64,000 nucleotides of DNA. Source: a virus. Below are positions 2,301-26,254 of the stretch, in pieces. Each line of letters begins with the position of its first letter. Position 1 is the stretch's first letter. A model generated the notes under the pieces. The model ran no database searches. It worked only from the letters and a program-made list of their open reading frames with translations, and had not been told where the DNA came from. The DNA is taken from positions 32,001-96,000 of the IMG/VR virus record IMGVR_UViG_3300044701_004608. One strand, given 5' to 3'. The position numbers were made by a program, and so were the translations under genes.

Positions 2301-4355
2301 TTACTTCTCGTGCGCGATGAACTCACCGTTCCAGTTATTAGGTAAGTTCTGCTCCTTCATGAACTCGCAACGTTCGATCCAGATCTTGTAATACTTGTCC
2401 ATCTGTCCACCGAACGAACCTTTCATCTTCTTACACATGGCTGCGGTCTCATCGAACTTTTTCTGTTTATATAAGGCATGCATCTTTTCATGTTGCTCTC
2501 GATCTTTGGTCCAATCTTCTCCGTTAGGACGTAAGGCTGTGTAGATCAAGTCTGCTACAGTCTTGCCTTTTGGCTGTAAGTTGTCTAGCATCAAGTAGAA
2601 GAAGTCGTCTTTAGTACGGTTGTATGTCTCGGCACCAATGATACACAATACGCCATATGCTTTACAACGTGCTTCTAGACGTGCGGCGGTTGAAACCATG
2701 TCGCCTAAGATGTCGTAACTGTGTCTATCAGTCGATCCCATCTCGCCGATAAAGCCAATACCAGTGTTACAACCCCAACCCATTGCGGCTGGTGGTAAAC
2801 CTTGTGCTTCCATTTCTTTAGTGTAGGCATCTACAGCATCTAACATCTGTAAGCCAACGGCAACGATCGTGCGAGCATGGTTAGGATCTTCGATCGGAGC
2901 ACCATGAATGTGCATACTCGCGTCACCTACATACTTGATGACCATGCCTTTGTTGTCCATGATAGGACGACTGATGGCATCCATGTAGCCGTTCATGTAT
3001 TTGCCGAGGCCAGCGACGTCATCACCATAGTGTTCACCAATGGGAGTGAAGCCACGCAGGTCTGAGAACATCACCGACACATCTTTGCGCACACCACGCT
3101 TGATCAAGTCGGGATCTTTCTGTAGCATCTCTACCACTTCTTTGCTACAGTATCCTGCGAACTGTTTTTTTATGGCTTGCTTCTGTAAGAACTCACTTAC
3201 AAACTTAACACCATAGGTGTGAAGAGCAACAAGCAAAAGACCAACAGTAGGTGCCGTCGCGTCGATGAGCACGTTTCGTGTAGTAAACATCCACCAAGAA
3301 CAAACAGCATAGGCAACGAGCCCAAGAATAGTTGTTGCGATACCGACATAAGTCCACCTCGATATTATTATTATTGTCAGAGATAGTGCCAGGAAAGCAG
3401 CCAGCTCAGCCATGTCGGCCCAGCCAGGTCGTTGAATATGGACGTTGTTAAACATCGTGCCGATCACAGCGGCTTGCACAGTTTGTGGCCACACGGATCC
3501 CTGTGCTGTGGCAACAGGGTTAGATAGGCCGGCGGCAGCGGTGCCCACGATCACTACAGCGCCACCTAGGTCTTGCGGTAGTTCAGTGAGCCCAACCGAT
3601 TTTGAAGTCTGGCTCCAGTCTATCCATATACGACCTAAGTCGTCTGTAGGTATGACGCCAAACTTGGGAATACGCATCTTCTCTACACCTAGCTCGTTGA
3701 GCTTGGCTTGGAAGTTGGGGTCACCAGCAATGACTCTCAGCACTTCCATAGAGAGTGCGGGATATACTTGATAGCCGGCTTTGTCGGGGACCGATACTAA
3801 TAACGGCATGCGGCGTGTGACGCCATCCACTTCAGGGAATGTGGTAGTGAGTCCCACACCCACGGCAGAGTTTTCCAGTCGTGGTATGTTGGCTATGATG
3901 CCGTCTACTGTGGGCAGTCGATCAGCGAACTGTGCGCCGATGATAGCGGCGCCAGGACTGCGTGGTTCGTTCTTGCCTTTAGGTGCTGCCACGTTGGGCA
4001 ATATCACTGGCAGTTCTCGCATGGCCTGTGACAGACGAGCATCGCCGCCGGAACGATCCGCCTCGGGCATCAAGACATTGAACACCACCAAGCCAGCACC
4101 GCGCTTGTAAAGGTCTTCGATGATGTTGGCGTAGATCTGACGAGGGAATGGCCATTGGCCATAACGCTCTAGCGCGGCTTCGTCGATGTTGACGGTGTAG
4201 ATATTGTTTTCTGTGGGAGTCTTGCTGGTGATCAGCGTGTCGAAGTATCTGAGTTTTATGCTTTCTACAAAGACAGGATTGGCGAGTATTGTAATTGCTA
4301 GAAAGACAACAGTGACCAGTGCCCACAGTGGGCTGAGTGCTATTTTTTTGAACAT
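2301..4355 (-). CDS. CHASE2-domain class III adenylate cyclase
   Basis: CHASE2 motifs (VNIDE..L..YGQWPFPR, DGVTRRMPL), 3 TMs, cyclase motifs FSDLRGFT, KYVGDA, YDILGDMVSTAARLE; start at MFKK just after TAAATA. Confidence 0.93.
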   Translation of the reverse strand: MFKKIALSPLWALVTVVFLAITILANPVFVESIKLRYFDTLITSKTPTENNIYTVNIDEAALERYGQWPFPRQIYANIIEDLYKRGAGLVVFNVLMPEADRSGGDARLSQAMRELPVILPNVAAPKGKNEPRSPGAAIIGAQFADRLPTVDGIIANIPRLENSAVGVGLTTTFPEVDGVTRRMPLLVSVPDKAGYQVYPALSMEVLRVIAGDPNFQAKLNELGVEKMRIPKFGVIPTDDLGRIWIDWSQTSKSVGLTELPQDLGGAVVIVGTAAAGLSNPVATAQGSVWPQTVQAAVIGTMFNNVHIQRPGWADMAELAAFLALSLTIIIISRWTYVGIATTILGLVAYAVCSWWMFTTRNVLIDATAPTVGLLLVALHTYGVKFVSEFLQKQAIKKQFAGYCSKEVVEMLQKDPDLIKRGVRKDVSVMFSDLRGFTPIGEHYGDDVAGLGKYMNGYMDAISRPIMDNKGMVIKYVGDASMHIHGAPIEDPNHARTIVAVGLQMLDAVDAYTKEMEAQGLPPAAMGWGCNTGIGFIGEMGSTDRHSYDILGDMVSTAARLEARCKAYGVLCIIGAETYNRTKDDFFYLMLDNLQPKGKTVADLIYTALRPNGEDWTKDREQHEKMHALYKQKKFDETAAMCKKMKGSFGGQMDKYYKIWIERCEFMKEQNLPNNWNGEFIAHEK

Positions 4356-4366
4356 CAAGTATTTAG

Positions 4367-4464
4367 TGGTGCTCACTTCCGGGGTCCACGGTAGCGAATC
4401 GCTTTCCCCGCGCCAGCAGCCGGCGCACACTACGGTAACTTAATACCGGTCCTAAGGTGTGTCC
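4367..4464 (-). ncRNA. Candidate structured ncRNA between desaturase and cyclase
   Basis: GC-rich intergenic stretch with CACAC/GUGUG, CGGUA/UACCG, GCGCCGG/CUGGCGC and GGGG..GCG/CGU..CCCC stems. Confidence 0.5.
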
Positions 4465-19415: not shown

Positions 19416-19625
19416 TCAACCGAGAATAGTAGGTTTCCACGCCAAACACCAGTATTCTGGACGTACTGGTGCGAACCAGCGACGGCACTGCCCAGAATCG
19501 AAATAGCCGCAATTACCACAGGCTTGGCTTCCCGGTGTTACACCGGGCACACCCGAAAGCTGATATTCGGGCGGCAGCTTTGGGCATATAGGTGTGCCAT
19601 CGGGATACAGCCTCTGGTCACTCAC
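19416..19625 (-). CDS. HiPIP-like 4-Cys small protein
   Basis: C-x2-C-x7-C-x12-C spacing ending in WC..W: CGNCGYFDSGQCRRWFAPVRPEYWCLAW. Confidence 0.6.
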   Translation of the reverse strand: MSDQRLYPDGTPICPKLPPEYQLSGVPGVTPGSQACGNCGYFDSGQCRRWFAPVRPEYWCLAWKPTILG

Positions 19626-20400
19626 TGGACGCCTCCGTGAAACGATCTGGGAACTGCAGGACTATGCCTTTGGCGAATATGTCCGAAAACGCTGGCGTGC
19701 CATCATACTGTCCGGCCAGGATGATACGGTGCGCTGTGTCCACCGCTTCGATATCGGCAGGCCAGTTTTTGCTGACGCGGGCACGACATTGTTCGATCCA
19801 GGCCTGGAGCACTTTGCCAAAGATGGCCTTGACCACATCGGCGGGCCAGTGCTGGGGGTTGGCTTTTTGTGCGAAGTTGGCGAAATCGTCGAGTTCGGCA
19901 TCGACTTTCTTGACTAAGGCATCGATGTTGCCGCCTTTCTTGAGCGTCTGCACGATCTCTAGTACTGTGAGTACAAACGATCTCATGTATTGTGCCAACT
20001 GTTTGCTGGCTACTAATCCATAGTAGGGGCGAACCGAGTCACCGATCTCGTCGATGTTTTGGAACAGTTGCTCTTCGACCACGGCCAAGTCTTCGCCGTT
20101 GTGCAAGGCGCTGGTGATGTAGTTGCGCAGTCTCCACAGGTATCTAGCCCAGATGGTGCGCTGGTCCATGCGCCAAGTCACAGCGGGTTCTGTGTTGAAC
20201 ACCGATATCGTGCCGGGCACATACATGGCTGTTTCTGTGACCACTACGCCGTTGCCGTTGGGGTTACCGTTGCCGTTGGTGTAGCCGTTGCCGTTAGTGT
20301 AGCCGTTGCCGTTGAGTTTGACGCCGTTGATGGCTTCCAGGGCCAAGGGATGATCAAAGTGTTCTTCTTTGATGGTGTGTGTTATGAGTTTGTAAACCAT
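19618..20400 (-). CDS. Helical-bundle protein B (paralog of 24341..24955)
   Basis: RTIWARYLWRLRNYI..LFQNIDEIG...PYYG..A..N.QHWP..FSDIFAKGIVLQFPDRF; AAGGAG SD. Confidence 0.75.
   Translation of the reverse strand: MVYKLITHTIKEEHFDHPLALEAINGVKLNGNGYTNGNGYTNGNGNPNGNGVVVTETAMYVPGTISVFNTEPAVTWRMDQRTIWARYLWRLRNYITSALHNGEDLAVVEEQLFQNIDEIGDSVRPYYGLVASKQLAQYMRSFVLTVLEIVQTLKKGGNIDALVKKVDAELDDFANFAQKANPQHWPADVVKAIFGKVLQAWIEQCRARVSKNWPADIEAVDTAHRIILAGQYDGTPAFSDIFAKGIVLQFPDRFTEASSE
20248..20313 (-). repeat. NGNGYT-type tandem coding repeat
   Basis: NGNGYTNGNGYTNGNGNPNGNG; repeated GCCGTT units. Confidence 0.85.
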
Positions 20401-20415
20401 TTTAAATCTCCTTTG

Positions 20416-20937
20416 TTAAGATTGTTGTACATTGGCGATGACCCACCATGCGCCGTTTTGTCCCAGCAGAGTCACTGACTCATAGGGTTGTTGCAATTCA
20501 AGTTCTTGATCTCTGCCTTCGAGATCGTTGCCACCTTGTGGGATGATCTTGGTCTTGTAGCCGCCGGGGCCACGCTGGTCCTTGATGATCAGGATCCTAC
20601 AGATGGCACCTATCACTGGCAGTTTGATATCCACTGTCTTGCCCACGGATGGTTTGACGACTCCGATGTAGTAGTCATCGCTTTGTACCGTGTAGTCGGC
20701 GTTGACATAGCGTGTGACGCAGTTGTGATTACCCCCGCCACCGTTGGCGCTCAATGTACCATCGGCGGCCACTGTGAGACCTGTGCCGACCTTGACCACG
20801 CCCAGATCAGTGGTGGTGGCGATGTCAGCATCGATTTCAAAGTCCACGTTGCCAGCAGGCGCTGTAGGATCCGGAGGTATGCTTTGTTTCAAGGCTCGCC
20901 CTGCTCGCACTGCGGTGGGTGCGCGGAAGTAACTCAT
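20416..20937 (-). CDS. Small beta-rich fibre/coat-like protein
   Basis: ATTTDLGVVKVGTGL plus YTVQSDDYYIGV..LP..IIKD domain shared with neighbours. Confidence 0.75.
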   Translation of the reverse strand: MSYFRAPTAVRAGRALKQSIPPDPTAPAGNVDFEIDADIATTTDLGVVKVGTGLTVAADGTLSANGGGGNHNCVTRYVNADYTVQSDDYYIGVVKPSVGKTVDIKLPVIGAICRILIIKDQRGPGGYKTKIIPQGGNDLEGRDQELELQQPYESVTLLGQNGAWWVIANVQQS

Positions 20938-20946
20938 GATCGCTCC

Positions 20947-21339
20947 TTAGACCACGTGCCATTCCGTGCCACGGAAGATGAAACTCACTGATCCGTAAGT
21001 CACGGTGTTGACGAAAGTGGCAGATCCATCGATGGTCTCGCCGCCAGTACCTTGGATGGTGATGTTGCCGGATCCTGGGCCCAGTTCGTCTTTGATGATG
21101 AACATCTTGCCATCGGTGCCAGTGGGCAGCGTGATGGTAGTGGCCACAGCCGAGTTCACTCCGATGTAGTAGTCATCGTTGGTGGCCGCGTAGTCCACTG
21201 TGACCACTGTAGTATTGTAGATGGGATTGCTGGGCGAGCCGCCTGTGACAGAGATCACGCCCCCGGTGATGGTTATTCCTGTGCCGGCCTGTACTAGGCC
21301 GAAATCTGTGGTTGATGCTAAAGGTACTTTGTATGACAT
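20947..21339 (-). CDS. Small beta-rich fibre/coat-like protein
   Basis: ASTTDFGLVQAGTGI plus DDYYIGVN..TLP..IIKDE..TIDG..EWHVV. Confidence 0.75.
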   Translation of the reverse strand: MSYKVPLASTTDFGLVQAGTGITITGGVISVTGGSPSNPIYNTTVVTVDYAATNDDYYIGVNSAVATTITLPTGTDGKMFIIKDELGPGSGNITIQGTGGETIDGSATFVNTVTYGSVSFIFRGTEWHVV

Positions 21340-21351
21340 GGTGTTTTCCTT

Positions 21352-21906
21352 TTATAGTTGTATGATGGTGCATCTCACGCTGGGTGTCGCTGGTCGGATG
21401 GGCCCAACTTGTGCAGGTGTAGTCAACAATCGCATGTTGACATCAGTGCTTTGCCAAGCGACCTGTATGTTGTCGCCGGCGTTTAACGCCACGGTGAAAT
21501 TCCACGACGCCACCAACACTCCCACGGTGCCTTCCACTGACACCTGAGAGTTGGTATTGGGATAGGCTGTGCCATTGCGTATCAGCCATAGGTCTGCGAG
21601 ATCCGTCCCAGCGTCGGTCTTGTCGATCTGTATCACGAACTGGAAGTTGTAGTTGGCATCCTTGCTCACAGTGATCTGGGAGCCACCCACCAATGTGATG
21701 CCCACGTTGATGGCAGAGTTGTCAAATGTGATGATGTTGACAGCGTTGGCCACTGGGTTGGTCTGTGTCTGTGTGCTGAAAAAGTAGGCTTGATCCAGCA
21801 AGGCCACCGGCACCACGCTGATCACCCCATCAGTGACAGACAGTCCGGAGCCGGACTGTACCACTCCATAGTCACCGGCGGTGCTGATGGGCTGCTTGTA
21901 GGTCAT
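21352..21906 (-). CDS. BclA C-terminal/C1q-like jelly-roll protein
   Basis: STAGDYGVVQSGSGL leader; ITFD, ITV....YNFQF, LWLIRNG, LNAGDNIQV. Confidence 0.65.
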   Translation of the reverse strand: MTYKQPISTAGDYGVVQSGSGLSVTDGVISVVPVALLDQAYFFSTQTQTNPVANAVNIITFDNSAINVGITLVGGSQITVSKDANYNFQFVIQIDKTDAGTDLADLWLIRNGTAYPNTNSQVSVEGTVGVLVASWNFTVALNAGDNIQVAWQSTDVNMRLLTTPAQVGPIRPATPSVRCTIIQL

Positions 21907-22340
21907 TACACCACGTTCCATTCCGTGCCGTTGAACACCAGGGTTATGCTGGCATAGTCGGTGTTGAGCACATAAGTGGCAGCACCATCTATGGTGTTGC
22001 CGTTGCCGGACACTGTTATGTTGTTGGTGTTGGCGTCACCGTCGATGTCCTTGATGATCAAGACCTGTCCCACGATGGGACTGGCTGGCAGCACCACAGT
22101 AGCTGGTGCCGCTATGTTCACGCCCAGATAGTAGTCTCCGGGTTGCACGGCGTAGGGCGTGGAATTCACTATCGTGACATTGACCGGGCTGGGACTGCCA
22201 GTGAATGTGCCTAGATTGATGAAGTCATTTCCCCAGCCACCAATGCTGTTGTTGAGTTGTGACACTGGCGCAGGGCGTGCTACGGGTAAGAGACCCGGGC
22301 GGCGTGGGCGGAATATTATCGGGCTGTAGTACTGGAACAT
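21906..22340 (-). CDS. Small beta-rich fibre/coat-like protein with Pro/Arg N-terminus
   Basis: YAVQPGDYYLGVN..VLP..IIKD..TIDG..EWNVV. Confidence 0.75.
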   Translation of the reverse strand: MFQYYSPIIFRPRRPGLLPVARPAPVSQLNNSIGGWGNDFINLGTFTGSPSPVNVTIVNSTPYAVQPGDYYLGVNIAAPATVVLPASPIVGQVLIIKDIDGDANTNNITVSGNGNTIDGAATYVLNTDYASITLVFNGTEWNVV

Positions 22341-22730
22341 TTATTTTTCCTTGTTTTCGTCAATGATGTCTTGTGCGGTCAACACCTGTTTGACCTTGTT
22401 GATTTTTTTGGTCACTTCGTCCAAATTGGAGAATAGTGGGCCGGCCGCGGGTGCTTGTTCCACTGGTTCTTCAACTTCTGATTCTTTGTCGTCAACGACG
22501 AACTTGAGAAGTTGTTCGGCCCGCTCTAAAATCTGTGCTTCTGTGGGATAAGGTGCGAATGGTGGATATGGCAAGCGTTCCCGGCGAGTTTTCCACACCA
22601 GATCAGCATCTGCCAACCACTTGTTGTGATCTTCGGCGCGCTTGTTGATGTATTCTTCGTTGAGGAGGGTGCGCGCCATCCTCAAGACCTCCATCCTATG
22701 TTTGGCTAGTTCAATGTCCTTGTCTATCAT
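22341..22730 (-). CDS. Hypothetical protein
   Basis: RMEVLRMAR..L..YPTEAQILERAEQL..FV. Confidence 0.7.
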   Translation of the reverse strand: MIDKDIELAKHRMEVLRMARTLLNEEYINKRAEDHNKWLADADLVWKTRRERLPYPPFAPYPTEAQILERAEQLLKFVVDDKESEVEEPVEQAPAAGPLFSNLDEVTKKINKVKQVLTAQDIIDENKEK

Positions 22731-22930
22731 TGTTGTCCCCAATCACTGCGGTTCCATAATCTTTCATGTATGATATAACTGATAGAGTTGATCACCAGTG
22801 TGGCAGCTCCTATCGATAGTCCTTTCCAGGGATCTCCAGTCACTACCCAACCCACTGTGCTGTTAGTGATCATCATCCAGATCCTCCAGGTCAGAGTTTT
22901 GACTGCTGTGCGTGTCAGTGTGTCTGTCAT
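22727..22930 (-). CDS. DUF2061-like small membrane protein
   Basis: RTAVKTLTWRI ... YIIHERLWNR..WG. Confidence 0.8.
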   Translation of the reverse strand: MTDTLTRTAVKTLTWRIWMMITNSTVGWVVTGDPWKGLSIGAATLVINSISYIIHERLWNRSDWGQQ

Positions 22931-23178
22931 TGCCAGCGATCTAGCACGATAATCAGCACAGAGATCAAGGCTGTGGCTATTGAAACTGCTGTACCCACTA
23001 CCTTGATCGTCTCTTGTCGATGGTGGTCACGATATTCTTTGAGCCGGGCCAGATCGTGTTCGGCCTCATCTATTCGTTTCTCGAGTGCCTGGTATCGTTC
23101 ATGGCACAATTCTACATGTGCCTCAAGGTTGTCGCGCTCGATGCCGAGATACTTTTTGGCTGTGACCACAAAACTCAT
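22927..23178 (-). CDS. Coiled-coil plus C-terminal TM protein (XhlA/holin-like), paralog of 40644..40913
   Basis: LEAHVELCHERY motif. Confidence 0.7.
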   Translation of the reverse strand: MSFVVTAKKYLGIERDNLEAHVELCHERYQALEKRIDEAEHDLARLKEYRDHHRQETIKVVGTAVSIATALISVLIIVLDRWQ

Positions 23179-23182
23179 TGTG

Positions 23183-23443
23183 TTAACCCACTACAGTTGG
23201 TGTAGAAGTCTGCGCAACGGTATCCATGTCGCCGGTGTTTATCAAACGCTGACCTGACACTGCACTACGGTTGTAGTTGCCTACAAATGTGTTGTTGGCA
23301 CTTTGTACCGCGCCTACCCCAGGATAACCGTATCCCACACCGTATCCGCCAAATCCATAATTTGGCCATCCCCAGCCGCCCCATGGGTAACGACGGTGAG
23401 CAAAGCTACCGTAGAAGGGGTGGTGATGATATAAACTAAACAT
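23183..23443 (-). CDS. Gly/Tyr/Trp-rich 86-aa protein with conserved C-terminal motif
   Basis: AAGGAG SD; MFSLYHHH..WGGWGWPNYGFGGYG..SAVSGQRLINTGDMDTVAQTSTPTVVG. Confidence 0.75.
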   Translation of the reverse strand: MFSLYHHHPFYGSFAHRRYPWGGWGWPNYGFGGYGVGYGYPGVGAVQSANNTFVGNYNRSAVSGQRLINTGDMDTVAQTSTPTVVG

Positions 23444-23456
23444 ATTCAATCTCCTT

Positions 23457-23489
23457 GTTAAAAGACGAGCAGGGATCACCCGCTCGTCT
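23457..23489 (-). terminator. Hairpin/terminator inside the cassette
   Basis: AGACGAGCGGG-TGAT-CCC(T)GCTCGTCT followed by a short T run on the minus strand. Confidence 0.6.
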
Positions 23490-23497
23490 ACTCTCAA

Positions 23498-23644
23498 TTA
23501 CCAGTAATAGGGACCGTAACCCCCACCGTAGTAGGGATAACCGTATCCATATCCCCAATATGGGTAGGCTAAGCCCCCATAGTAAGGATAACCAATACCG
23601 GCTGCCAGGTAAGGCCTGGCGTAACCCCAGGGCCTATAGAACAT
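23498..23644 (-). CDS. 48-aa Tyr/Gly/Pro-rich peptide (not in ORF track)
   Basis: GGAGG SD; MFYRPWGYARPYLAAGIGYPYYGGLAYPYWGYGYGYPYYGGGYGPYYW*. Confidence 0.75.
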   Translation of the reverse strand: MFYRPWGYARPYLAAGIGYPYYGGLAYPYWGYGYGYPYYGGGYGPYYW

Positions 23645-23659
23645 GGTCTCTTCCTCCGA

Positions 23660-24223
23660 TTAAGTGATCGAAGTTGGAGTCGATGTCTGTGTAGTACCTG
23701 TCATGGTTCCGGTATTGACCAGACCTTGGCTAGAGATTGCACTGTTCAGTGCGTTGATAGCGGCTACGCTGTTAGCGCTCTGGTAAGCACTGACAGCACC
23801 ACCGTAGGCTAGACCTAGACCACCATAGAGACCGTTAAGACCTGTCAGAGCTGTGTTGGTATTGATCAGAGCCGTGTTGAGGTTTTCACGGTTGATGCCG
23901 TTGATGAGCTGGCGTGTGAGTTCAGCTTGACCCATCACAGCTTCGCGTGTGCGAGCAGCTTCTTGCATGACGAGTGCGTCAGTGCGAGCGGCGGCCAACA
24001 TAGCGGCTGTGTTAGCATCATTTACTGCCTGCTTGGTAGCAGCCAGTGCCTGGTCCGTGTGGAATGCTGTTTGCATAGCACGGTTGTTGATGTCGTTGCT
24101 TTGTGCGACTTGAAGTTTGTAGTTTTCGAAAACGCTGTCAGAAACTTTTGTGTTTACGGCCTGGATCTGTGCGCTCAGGGCGTAGAAAGGATCTGTTGTG
24201 AATGCTCCTGTTACATCTGCCAT
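23660..24223 (-). CDS. Ala/Thr/Asn/Gln-rich helical structural-type protein
   Basis: Strong AAGGAG SD and leader hairpin; no Cys or Trp; C-terminal SAISSQGLVNTGTMTGTTQTSTPTSIT. Confidence 0.8.
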   Translation of the reverse strand: MADVTGAFTTDPFYALSAQIQAVNTKVSDSVFENYKLQVAQSNDINNRAMQTAFHTDQALAATKQAVNDANTAAMLAAARTDALVMQEAARTREAVMGQAELTRQLINGINRENLNTALINTNTALTGLNGLYGGLGLAYGGAVSAYQSANSVAAINALNSAISSQGLVNTGTMTGTTQTSTPTSIT

Positions 24224-24293
24224 TTTAGTAGTCTCCTTGTAAATGGTGTTATACCGGACGTCCCGGTATAATTACTTAGAAGCAAATGGCCAA

Positions 24294-24320
24294 GAAAAAG
24301 CCAGGCTTGAGCCTGGCCTA
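24294..24320 (-). terminator. Intrinsic terminator
   Basis: GCCAGGC-TCAA-GCCTGGC followed by T6. Confidence 0.75.
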
Positions 24321-24340: not shown

Positions 24341-24955
24341 TCACGTTGCTATGGCAAATCTATCGGGACTCTGTTGTACTATCCCCGAAGCAAACACATG
24401 GGCCAATTGTCTAGCTGTGTCGAAGCATCTGTCAGTCGCAGTGAGATCCTCGTTCCAGTTTTTAATCAACCTCATATTGATCTGCGAAAACCATGTCTCT
24501 ACTAAATCCATCAATTGATTTTTGATATTGAGCATGTTCCATGCTCCGGGATTGAGTGTAGACATGAGATCAAATAATTCAGATGCACTGTTTTTTAATT
24601 TAGTCACTAAATCCTGCACGAACATGTCTGTGTTGATATTAAAATTTACCGGAGGTTTCTTGATATAATCTAACAACTGTATCATTTCAGTAGTCTGTGC
24701 CTCCATGATAGTACGCCATCGCTGTGCTGAATCAGTACCATAGTAATCATTGATGGTATCGAAAAAATCAGAGATGTTAGCCATGACCCATTCTCTCGTG
24801 ACTGGCATCTCAGGCATCCCATTCATTACAGCTACTAGGTGGCTACGATTTCGCCAGACATAATCGTTCCAGAGGTCGCGGGACCTGGCATGGAAATTGC
24901 CTACTTTGGCAGGATCTTCTTGGAAGTATTGTGTTGTGGTGACTTTGTAAACCAT
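24341..24955 (-). CDS. Helical-bundle protein A (paralog of 19618..20400)
   Basis: MVYK start; RDLWNDYVWRNRSHL..DYYG..LNPGAWN..LAHVFASGIVQQSPDRF. Confidence 0.75.
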   Translation of the reverse strand: MVYKVTTTQYFQEDPAKVGNFHARSRDLWNDYVWRNRSHLVAVMNGMPEMPVTREWVMANISDFFDTINDYYGTDSAQRWRTIMEAQTTEMIQLLDYIKKPPVNFNINTDMFVQDLVTKLKNSASELFDLMSTLNPGAWNMLNIKNQLMDLVETWFSQINMRLIKNWNEDLTATDRCFDTARQLAHVFASGIVQQSPDRFAIAT

Positions 24956-25880: not shown

Positions 25881-26213
25881 TCAGTGTGTGTTGAGACTTG
25901 GTGAATATTGCCGAATCAATTCACGCTCACGGGCATGGGCGGGTTTGCGTCCACGCACGATCTCGATGAGACCGTAAGTGTGAGCTTCGGGGCCATGCTC
26001 TCTAATACTTTCGCATAGTGCCCATGACTTGTTTTCGGTGAGTGCTCTGCGGATGTGCTTCTGGATGCGGATTTTAAGAGCGCGGCGTACTTGGCTACCG
26101 CACACAGTGATGCCGATATACTGCTCGCCAGTCTGGGTGTTAGTGATACAGTAGACAGCATGTTTGGTGTCCTGTCTACGGCGTCTTTTTGGGGTGGGAT
26201 TTCTCATTTCCAT
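25881..26213 (-). CDS. GIY-YIG family nuclease (catalytic domain only)
   Basis: AVYCITN..GEQYIGIT..R..H..A..RERELI....LN. Confidence 0.8.
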   Translation of the reverse strand: MEMRNPTPKRRRRQDTKHAVYCITNTQTGEQYIGITVCGSQVRRALKIRIQKHIRRALTENKSWALCESIREHGPEAHTYGLIEIVRGRKPAHARERELIRQYSPSLNTH

Positions 26214-26219
26214 AATAAT

Positions 26220-26248
26220 ATTATACGAAAATGGGAATAATTGGTCAA
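26220..26248 (-). promoter_or_regulatory. Sigma70-type early promoter
   Basis: TTGACC-17-TATAAT; spacer TTCCCATTT shared with the 62912-62940 promoter. Confidence 0.8.
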
Positions 26249-26254
26249 CCAAAA

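Follow-up and report, generated by a model that had tools for sequence, protein, structure and literature searches.

Two co-encoded proteins of an uncultured freshwater jumbo phage share a C-terminal module

Gene organization of the cassette

The stretch of DNA analyzed here (the window, 64,000 nucleotides) comprises bases 32001–96000 of an IMG/VR viral contig of 111,782 bases. CheckV rated this contig as 32% complete, implying a genome of about 300 kb. The 112-kb contig from which the window is taken is thus a fragment of the genome of an uncultured freshwater jumbo phage. Nearly all genes of the contig lie on the minus strand. Among the recognized products are a ribonucleotide reductase, a DnaB-type helicase, a SleB-type cell-wall hydrolase and several fibre-like proteins; T4-type capsid and portal families had no match on the 112-kb contig, and the same families were silent in control genomes too. 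The only links to cultured phages found for the contig come from a 709-aa protein (2301–4430) that is 44% identical to a Methylophilales phage Melnitz protein annotated as adenylate/guanylate cyclase catalytic domain, and 37% identical to a protein of Pelagibacter phage HTVC008M.

Two open reading frames (ORFs) were confirmed on the minus strand, i.e., those of a 187-aa protein (long protein, 23660–24223), which has a strong Shine-Dalgarno (SD) sequence, and of an 86-aa protein (short protein, 23183–23443). The short protein starts with an ATG at 23443 that is preceded by an AAGGAG SD sequence; the mechanically called ORF, starting from a TTG, has 104 aa. Its N-terminal half is rich in His, Gly, Tyr and Trp and is followed by the tail that it has in common with the long protein. 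The two genes are 217 bp apart and enclose a micropeptide gene (23498–23644, minus strand) with a GGAGG SD sequence, which starts 15 nt past the stop of the long gene. The micropeptide of 48 aa is Gly/Tyr/Pro-rich and lacks the tail; one third of it is tyrosine (16 residues) and one quarter glycine (12 residues). Its family HMM, built from 12 loci, scored 34 bits (E 2e-12), and in all 15 loci inspected, locus L019 aside, the gene occupies this place.

Between the stop of the micropeptide gene and the SD sequence of the short gene lies a hairpin that resembles an intrinsic terminator (23460–23488, minus strand), with a G+C-rich stem of about 11 bp followed by four T and a predicted RNA folding energy of −20.2 kcal/mol. 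All of the 12 other loci that were folded have a hairpin of 10–12 bp with four to six T directly 5′ of the SD sequence of the short gene, and the stems differ in sequence among these 13 loci. A terminator conserved at this position would let the long protein and the micropeptide be made in excess over the short protein, which suggests that the long protein is a candidate major subunit and the short protein the minor partner. A second terminator-like hairpin (24298–24319, minus strand; nine pairs, six of them G-C, and a T-run in a consensus scan) is located 3′ of the preceding gene, and this predicted terminator marks the long gene as the start of its own transcription unit. Between it and the SD sequence of the 187-aa gene, a 9-bp inverted repeat with a 5-nt spacer (24249–24271) could be a leader hairpin or an operator bound, e.g., by the LuxR-type protein of the upstream gene. 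The T4-type late promoter box TATAAATA was not enriched (2 matches, 1.7 expected). Farther upstream, between the lysis region and the LuxR gene, a 123-aa ORF (25881–26252) reads by eye like a GIY-YIG homing-endonuclease domain.

The preceding gene encodes the MVYK protein (204 aa, 24341–24955, minus strand), which is predicted as a six-helix bundle (AF2, pLDDT 89.5, pTM 0.82). A paralogue with 27% identity to this copy is found at 19618–20400, so that MVYK genes bracket the cassette. In a PDB sequence search, the MVYK protein found nothing below E 0.17. The confident model gave no pointer to an enzyme or chaperone: Foldseek had no match at E ≤ 0.001, and the matches of a wider structural comparison, led by a designed six-helix barrel (Z 11) and followed by rhodopsins, are in the range expected for any helical bundle. 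The MVYK model in the Atlas matches bacterial proteins with TM 0.83–0.84, mostly of about 206 aa, two larger matches having LysM or Cu_amine_oxidN1 domains.

Downstream of the short gene follow three small genes (22341–23178, minus strand) for proteins of 83, 67 and 133 aa, and four tandem mini-fibre genes (20416–22340, minus strand) for proteins of 173, 130, 189 and 144 aa. The 83-aa protein has a hydrophobic C-terminal segment, read from sequence as a candidate membrane segment, the 67-aa protein is a DUF2061 membrane protein (Pfam, E 1.8e-14) and the 133-aa protein is acidic. In PHROG searches the mini-fibres match N-terminal domains of tail fibres and tail spikes, and the 144-aa protein matches Pfam Phage_depo_C above the cut-off.

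We compared gene order by phmmer of the neighbours in the window against all ORFs of 29 related loci. The conserved order starts with a LuxR/GerE regulator (26 of 29 loci), the long gene or genes, the micropeptide gene and the short gene, and continues with MVYK, the 83-aa protein, the acidic protein, three to five mini-fibre genes and often a second MVYK gene. An MVYK copy adjoins the short gene in most related loci, and the 83-aa and 133-aa families are likewise syntenic in most. Mini-fibre genes are located 3′ of the cassette in 23 of 29 loci, including the divergent clade L028–L030, which lacks the regulator and the membrane protein and has kept the long genes, micropeptide, MVYK and fibres.

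A C-terminal module on two unrelated protein bodies

Residues 146–186 of the long protein and 45–85 of the short protein align without gaps at 21 identical positions out of 41 (BLASTP, E 1e-8), and by this measure the similarity of the two predicted tails is far beyond chance. Outside the tail, the second BLASTP segment had an E value of 2.1, i.e., the bodies are unrelated. A sequence-only reading of this DNA had described a 27-aa C-terminal tag on two otherwise unrelated proteins. The tag is real, its long/short pair recurring in 24 of 29 related loci, and the description of the bodies was correct; the length has to be revised, since the Gly/Tyr stretch and the QSAN in front of the tail are also common to both proteins and extend the module to about 43 residues in this genome. 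On the minus strand, it takes up the last 43 residues of the long protein (23663–23791, with the 27-residue core at 23663–23743) and of the short protein (23186–23314, core at 23186–23266). The DNA coding for the two tails is only 52% identical and is therefore not a DNA repeat. On the 112-kb contig itself, the tail HMM scored only the long (80 bits) and the short (83 bits) ORF.

Across 43 tails, Q/N/G/V/I account for 47% of the residues and S/T for 30%, whereas charged residues make up 2.2% and K, P and L together 5.8%; Lys is absent and one Pro is conserved. Enrichment in Q/N/G/V/I and depletion in K/P/L is also the bias reported for β-arch-forming amyloid signalling motifs (Dyrka et al., bioRxiv 10.1101/2020.01.06.895854).

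Homologues of the long protein form at least 768 clusters at 90% identity. They stem from metagenomes, are mostly 184–187 aa long and 65–75% identical, occur on contigs of up to 332 kb and are nowhere named beyond 'hypothetical'. Megablast and tblastn found no relative of the 187-aa protein in 50,697 phage records, i.e., no cultured relative. Pfam, PHROGs and NCBIfam gave no match for the long, short or micropeptide protein, a PDB sequence search with the long-protein profile gave nothing below E 0.17, and the ESM Atlas returned only unnamed viral clusters for the long protein. In the literature, we found nothing on Gly/Tyr-rich jumbo-phage proteins.

When the 29 related viral loci were scored with the tail HMM, the 24 loci with the pair had one or two long helical and one short Gly/Tyr-rich tail-bearing protein. 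In L028–L030 the HMM scores the long pair only, and divergent short genes are visible by eye in L028 and L030; the contigs of L007 and L023 end too early. L019 is the only locus with downstream room yet without a short gene. On this 10.7-kb contig, the micropeptide gene (3213–3437) gives way midway to unrelated sequence, and the remaining cassette genes are absent. This reflects either a chimera from assembly or a genuine rearrangement.

We then used a tail-only alignment (A2; 43 sequences from both classes, 45 columns) as a profile against 1.84 billion representative proteins (HMMER, E 0.001). The motif is kept in homologues: all 46 matches were read, of which one was a spurious repeat protein, and 45 of 46 were located at the C-terminus or at most 10 residues from it. 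They fell into two classes, i.e., helical long proteins of 181–307 aa or N-terminally cut fragments of them, and Gly/Tyr-rich short proteins of 42–108 aa. No cellular protein and no third architecture with the tail was present among these representatives, which argues against a signal read by host machinery. In two representatives, P0166 (307 aa) and P0127 (244 aa), charged repeat units lengthen the helical N-terminal part in front of the same tail, i.e., the length of the rod varies and the tail is fixed.

The sequence-only reading had offered an export or targeting signal as one role for the tag. As a general signal this found no support, as the tail was absent from bacterial and other protein classes and secretion genes were absent nearby. 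We consider it improbable that the tail is an export, processing or modification signal recognized by a secretion system of host or phage, a protease or a modifying enzyme, with O-glycosylation of a Thr/Ser/Pro-rich end or the follower peptide of a modified peptide as examples. Such a role would suit a conserved, terminal, Thr/Ser/Pro-rich tail as well as the small size and odd composition of the short protein and the micropeptide; moreover, bacterial proteins with an MVYK-like fold have automatic Atlas names as glycosyltransferase family members, names that Pfam does not support. However, in addition to the outcome of the profile search, no basic-hydrophobic signal segment can be read from the N-termini of the long and short proteins, the conserved cassette has no secretion, protease, radical-SAM or recognizable transferase gene, and the MVYK model has no informative enzyme match.

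AF2, run on an alignment of 36 sequences, predicted the long protein as one continuous helix from residue 12 to 165 (mean pLDDT 77.6, pTM 0.31), with pLDDT above 90 at residues 31–120; a pTM of 0.31 is expected for an isolated rod. Residues 166–187 are unstructured in the monomer model (pLDDT 43–55), and a Gly-rich hinge precedes the tail. Apart from residues 110–140, the helix shows only weak hydrophobic heptad periodicity. As it has no continuous register, a canonical coiled-coil rod was not called. The most conserved part of the protein is residues 25–56 (pairwise identity 0.89); the 27-aa core has a mean pairwise identity of 0.65 among the 36 homologues, near the protein average.

A tail that is unfolded in the monomer model would also suit a common docking tag, with each tail independently binding the same third phage component, e.g., a site on capsid or baseplate, a fibre hub, or MVYK as a chaperone. 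We regard this as the main alternative, though a rather doubtful one. Two to three tail-bearing proteins per genome and the MVYK gene next to the short gene in most loci are in line with it. Terminal targeting peptides are known for the cargo of protein shells, namely the encapsulin cargo-loading peptide and the T4 capsid-targeting sequence, the shell being of the HK97 type. Like these, the phage tag is a short terminal peptide behind a flexible Gly-rich linker and common to unrelated bodies; in contrast to them, it is longer, it is found on only two body types and the fragment offers no candidate shell partner. Targeting tags usually serve varied cargo, whereas only two body types were tagged among 1.84e9 representatives, and a role as self-stacking strands suits the uncharged Q/N/G/T/V/I-rich tail, with its conserved Gly and Asn, better than one as a docking peptide.

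Matched changes and exchange of tails

Three changes of the tail affect the long and the short protein of a genome alike and are confined to these genomes. In L006, L009 and L015–L017, a GAGA-type segment, longer by one residue, takes the place of the NTG-centred one; in L014 a conserved Gln is replaced by Asn, and in L028–L030 two residues are inserted before the conserved Gln. The Ser/Ala after the second conserved Gln also tends to match between partners. Over 21 non-redundant loci, long and short tails of the same genome had an identity of 0.536 compared with 0.466 ± 0.015 in shuffled pairings, and none of 20000 shuffles reached the observed value, although this control ignores relatedness, so that 0/20000 is not a probability and any of the matched changes may go back to one event in an ancestor. 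Matched changes would equally be imposed on both tails by a shared binding pocket, as a docking tag requires; however, no candidate partner has been shown to co-vary. A signal read by the host, on the other hand, need not change in step in both proteins.

Where both tails have the same residue, the codon is identical in only 30–58% of cases, and the nucleotide identity is 0.51–0.68. The differing codons indicate that selection on the peptide, rather than recent gene conversion, has kept the tails alike; an old gene conversion followed by synonymous drift may have been the source of the likeness. That the tail is a functionless relic of an old partial duplication, or of repeated gene conversion between neighbour genes, appears highly improbable to us. 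The genes are only 200–900 bp apart and tails have proved exchangeable between bodies in this lineage, as described below, but the tail has been kept at the protein level in hundreds of clusters and in representatives below 50% identity, and its synonymous sites have diverged, which points to purifying selection on the peptide.

The tail of most short proteins is of the short class: it ends in Trp and is not preceded by a QSAN pre-tail. In contrast, the short protein of the window and its close relatives in L003 and L004 have a long-type pre-tail. With class HMMs, the core of the window's short protein scored 44.0 bits for the second long paralogue, an HMM of six sequences, compared with 33.4 bits for the short class and 32.5 bits for the first long paralogue; its pre-tail scored 8.6–10.1 bits with the long classes and 1.7 bits with the short class. 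Its N-terminus aligns with the short family from residue 1, if weakly (8.8 bits), and its position is syntenic. Judged by these class scores, the short protein of the window is a natural module swap, i.e., a tail of the long-paralogue type on a short body, and the tail would hence be portable between bodies. The genomes of the window, L003 and L004 each have one long gene only. Two representatives below 50% identity, P0132 and P0150, have the same long-type-tail subtype, which speaks for an established lineage.

A possible role in co-assembly

The sequence-only reading had also suggested a polymerization module. This claim has gained indirect support, i.e., from the conservation of the tail, its restriction to two co-encoded body types and its co-variation including matched insertions and deletions. 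We favor, with modest confidence, the view that the C-terminal module serves specifically for homotypic co-assembly, by which an abundant helical rod and a rarer Gly/Tyr-rich protein would be joined. The tail is found on two co-encoded partners only, it is uncharged, Q/N/G/T-rich, unfolded alone and portable, and it shows matched changes; like-with-like contact is the best explanation for this combination. The 187-aa protein, with its α-helical rod of about 155 residues, and the Gly/Tyr-rich 86-aa protein would then join by contacts of like tails, most probably by in-register stacking of β-strands or β-arches, either open-ended (amyloid-like) or closed (foldon-like). In such a co-assembly, the terminator before the short gene would make the short protein the minor partner, acting as nucleator, cap or anchor, with the long protein as the major rod. 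Mini-fibre genes are constant companions of the cassette, which suggests that the product is a fibrous structure; it would probably be made late in infection and be linked to the mini-fibres encoded just downstream. Direct contact between the tails, their β structure, the major and minor roles and the link to the virion are what we infer from the gene and protein sequences.

The C-terminal foldon of T4 fibritin is a unit of about 27 residues that follows a long helical rod and is found on one protein only. The phage tail resembles it in length, in its C-terminal position after a long helical rod, in a setting of phage fibres and in that it would fold only on oligomerization. Unlike the foldon, it is also found on a non-helical Gly/Tyr-rich protein; in sequence it is not similar to the foldon, and it had no Pfam, PHROG or PDB sequence match.

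In curli, the nucleator CsgB and the major subunit CsgA, with five strand-turn-strand repeats, are under the control of the LuxR-family regulator CsgD. The phage cassette likewise would have a minor and a major subunit with a common Ser/Gln/Asn/Gly-patterned unit, its GerE/LuxR-type regulator is encoded directly upstream in 26 of 29 loci, and unequal expression of the two proteins is suggested here as well. It differs from curli in that its N-termini do not read as signal peptides, and in that it lacks CsgG/E/F-type secretion genes, has one motif copy with other spacing, and has a long protein that is mostly helical. Neither Curlin_rpt nor any other Pfam family matched the tail proteins of the cassette at E ≤ 1.

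The nearest described principle is that of amyloid signalling motif pairs, such as HET-s/NWD2 of fungi, BASS on bacterial Bell-domain/NLR pairs and Bab/Agp of E. coli. In these pairs, neighbouring collinear genes encode two proteins that have a motif of about 25 residues in common and are unrelated elsewhere (Dyrka et al., bioRxiv 10.1101/2020.01.06.895854; Ibarlosa et al., bioRxiv 10.1101/2024.11.07.622273). The phage tails share with them the motif length, the Q/N/G/V/I-rich composition of low charge, the neighbouring genes, the matching within genomes and the location at the C-terminus of a helical protein. However, both phage tails are C-terminal instead of one C-terminal and one N-terminal, the phage motif is Thr-rich with a conserved Pro, and the setting is a lytic-type jumbo phage beside fibre genes and not a cell-death defence pair. 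The helical body had no Pfam match, and as a monomer it is predicted by AF2 as a single helix of 154 residues and not as a Bell/HeLo bundle, although its fold may differ in the oligomer. NACHT, NB-ARC or other sensor domains had no match in the cassette proteins scanned. As the C-terminal/N-terminal arrangement with an NLR-type sensor is absent, the phage cassette is not a member of the amyloid-signalling family.

A more specific reading, which we hold to be unlikely, would make the two proteins a functional amyloid- or prion-like templating pair of the phage. The tails of the abundant helical protein would stack in register, with the minor Gly/Tyr-rich protein as nucleator, and the cross-β spine of the tails would yield a helix-decorated fibre or matrix that carries the mini-fibres, with the Tyr-rich micropeptide as matrix or cross-linker. 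This would resemble keratin rods that sit in a matrix of high-Gly/Tyr proteins, and it would be the first such templated co-assembly system described in a bacterial virus. If homotypic pairing of the tails as such holds true, the principle of matched terminal motifs would extend from cell-death signalling and secreted amyloids to phage morphogenesis, and the tails would constitute a small, portable and naturally orthogonal set of hetero-assembly tags.

Among uncultured freshwater jumbo phages, the cassette is widely distributed and strongly conserved, and it is nameless in any source. Of its features, only the matched, co-evolving tail lends itself directly to experiments. The sole match in a bacterial genome was a 10-kb contig in an uncultured Chitinophagales MAG (L032, CAZXGO010000088.1) that ends in a version of the 187-aa gene with 90% identity; this contig is probably a mis-binned phage fragment and at most a weak hint at the host.
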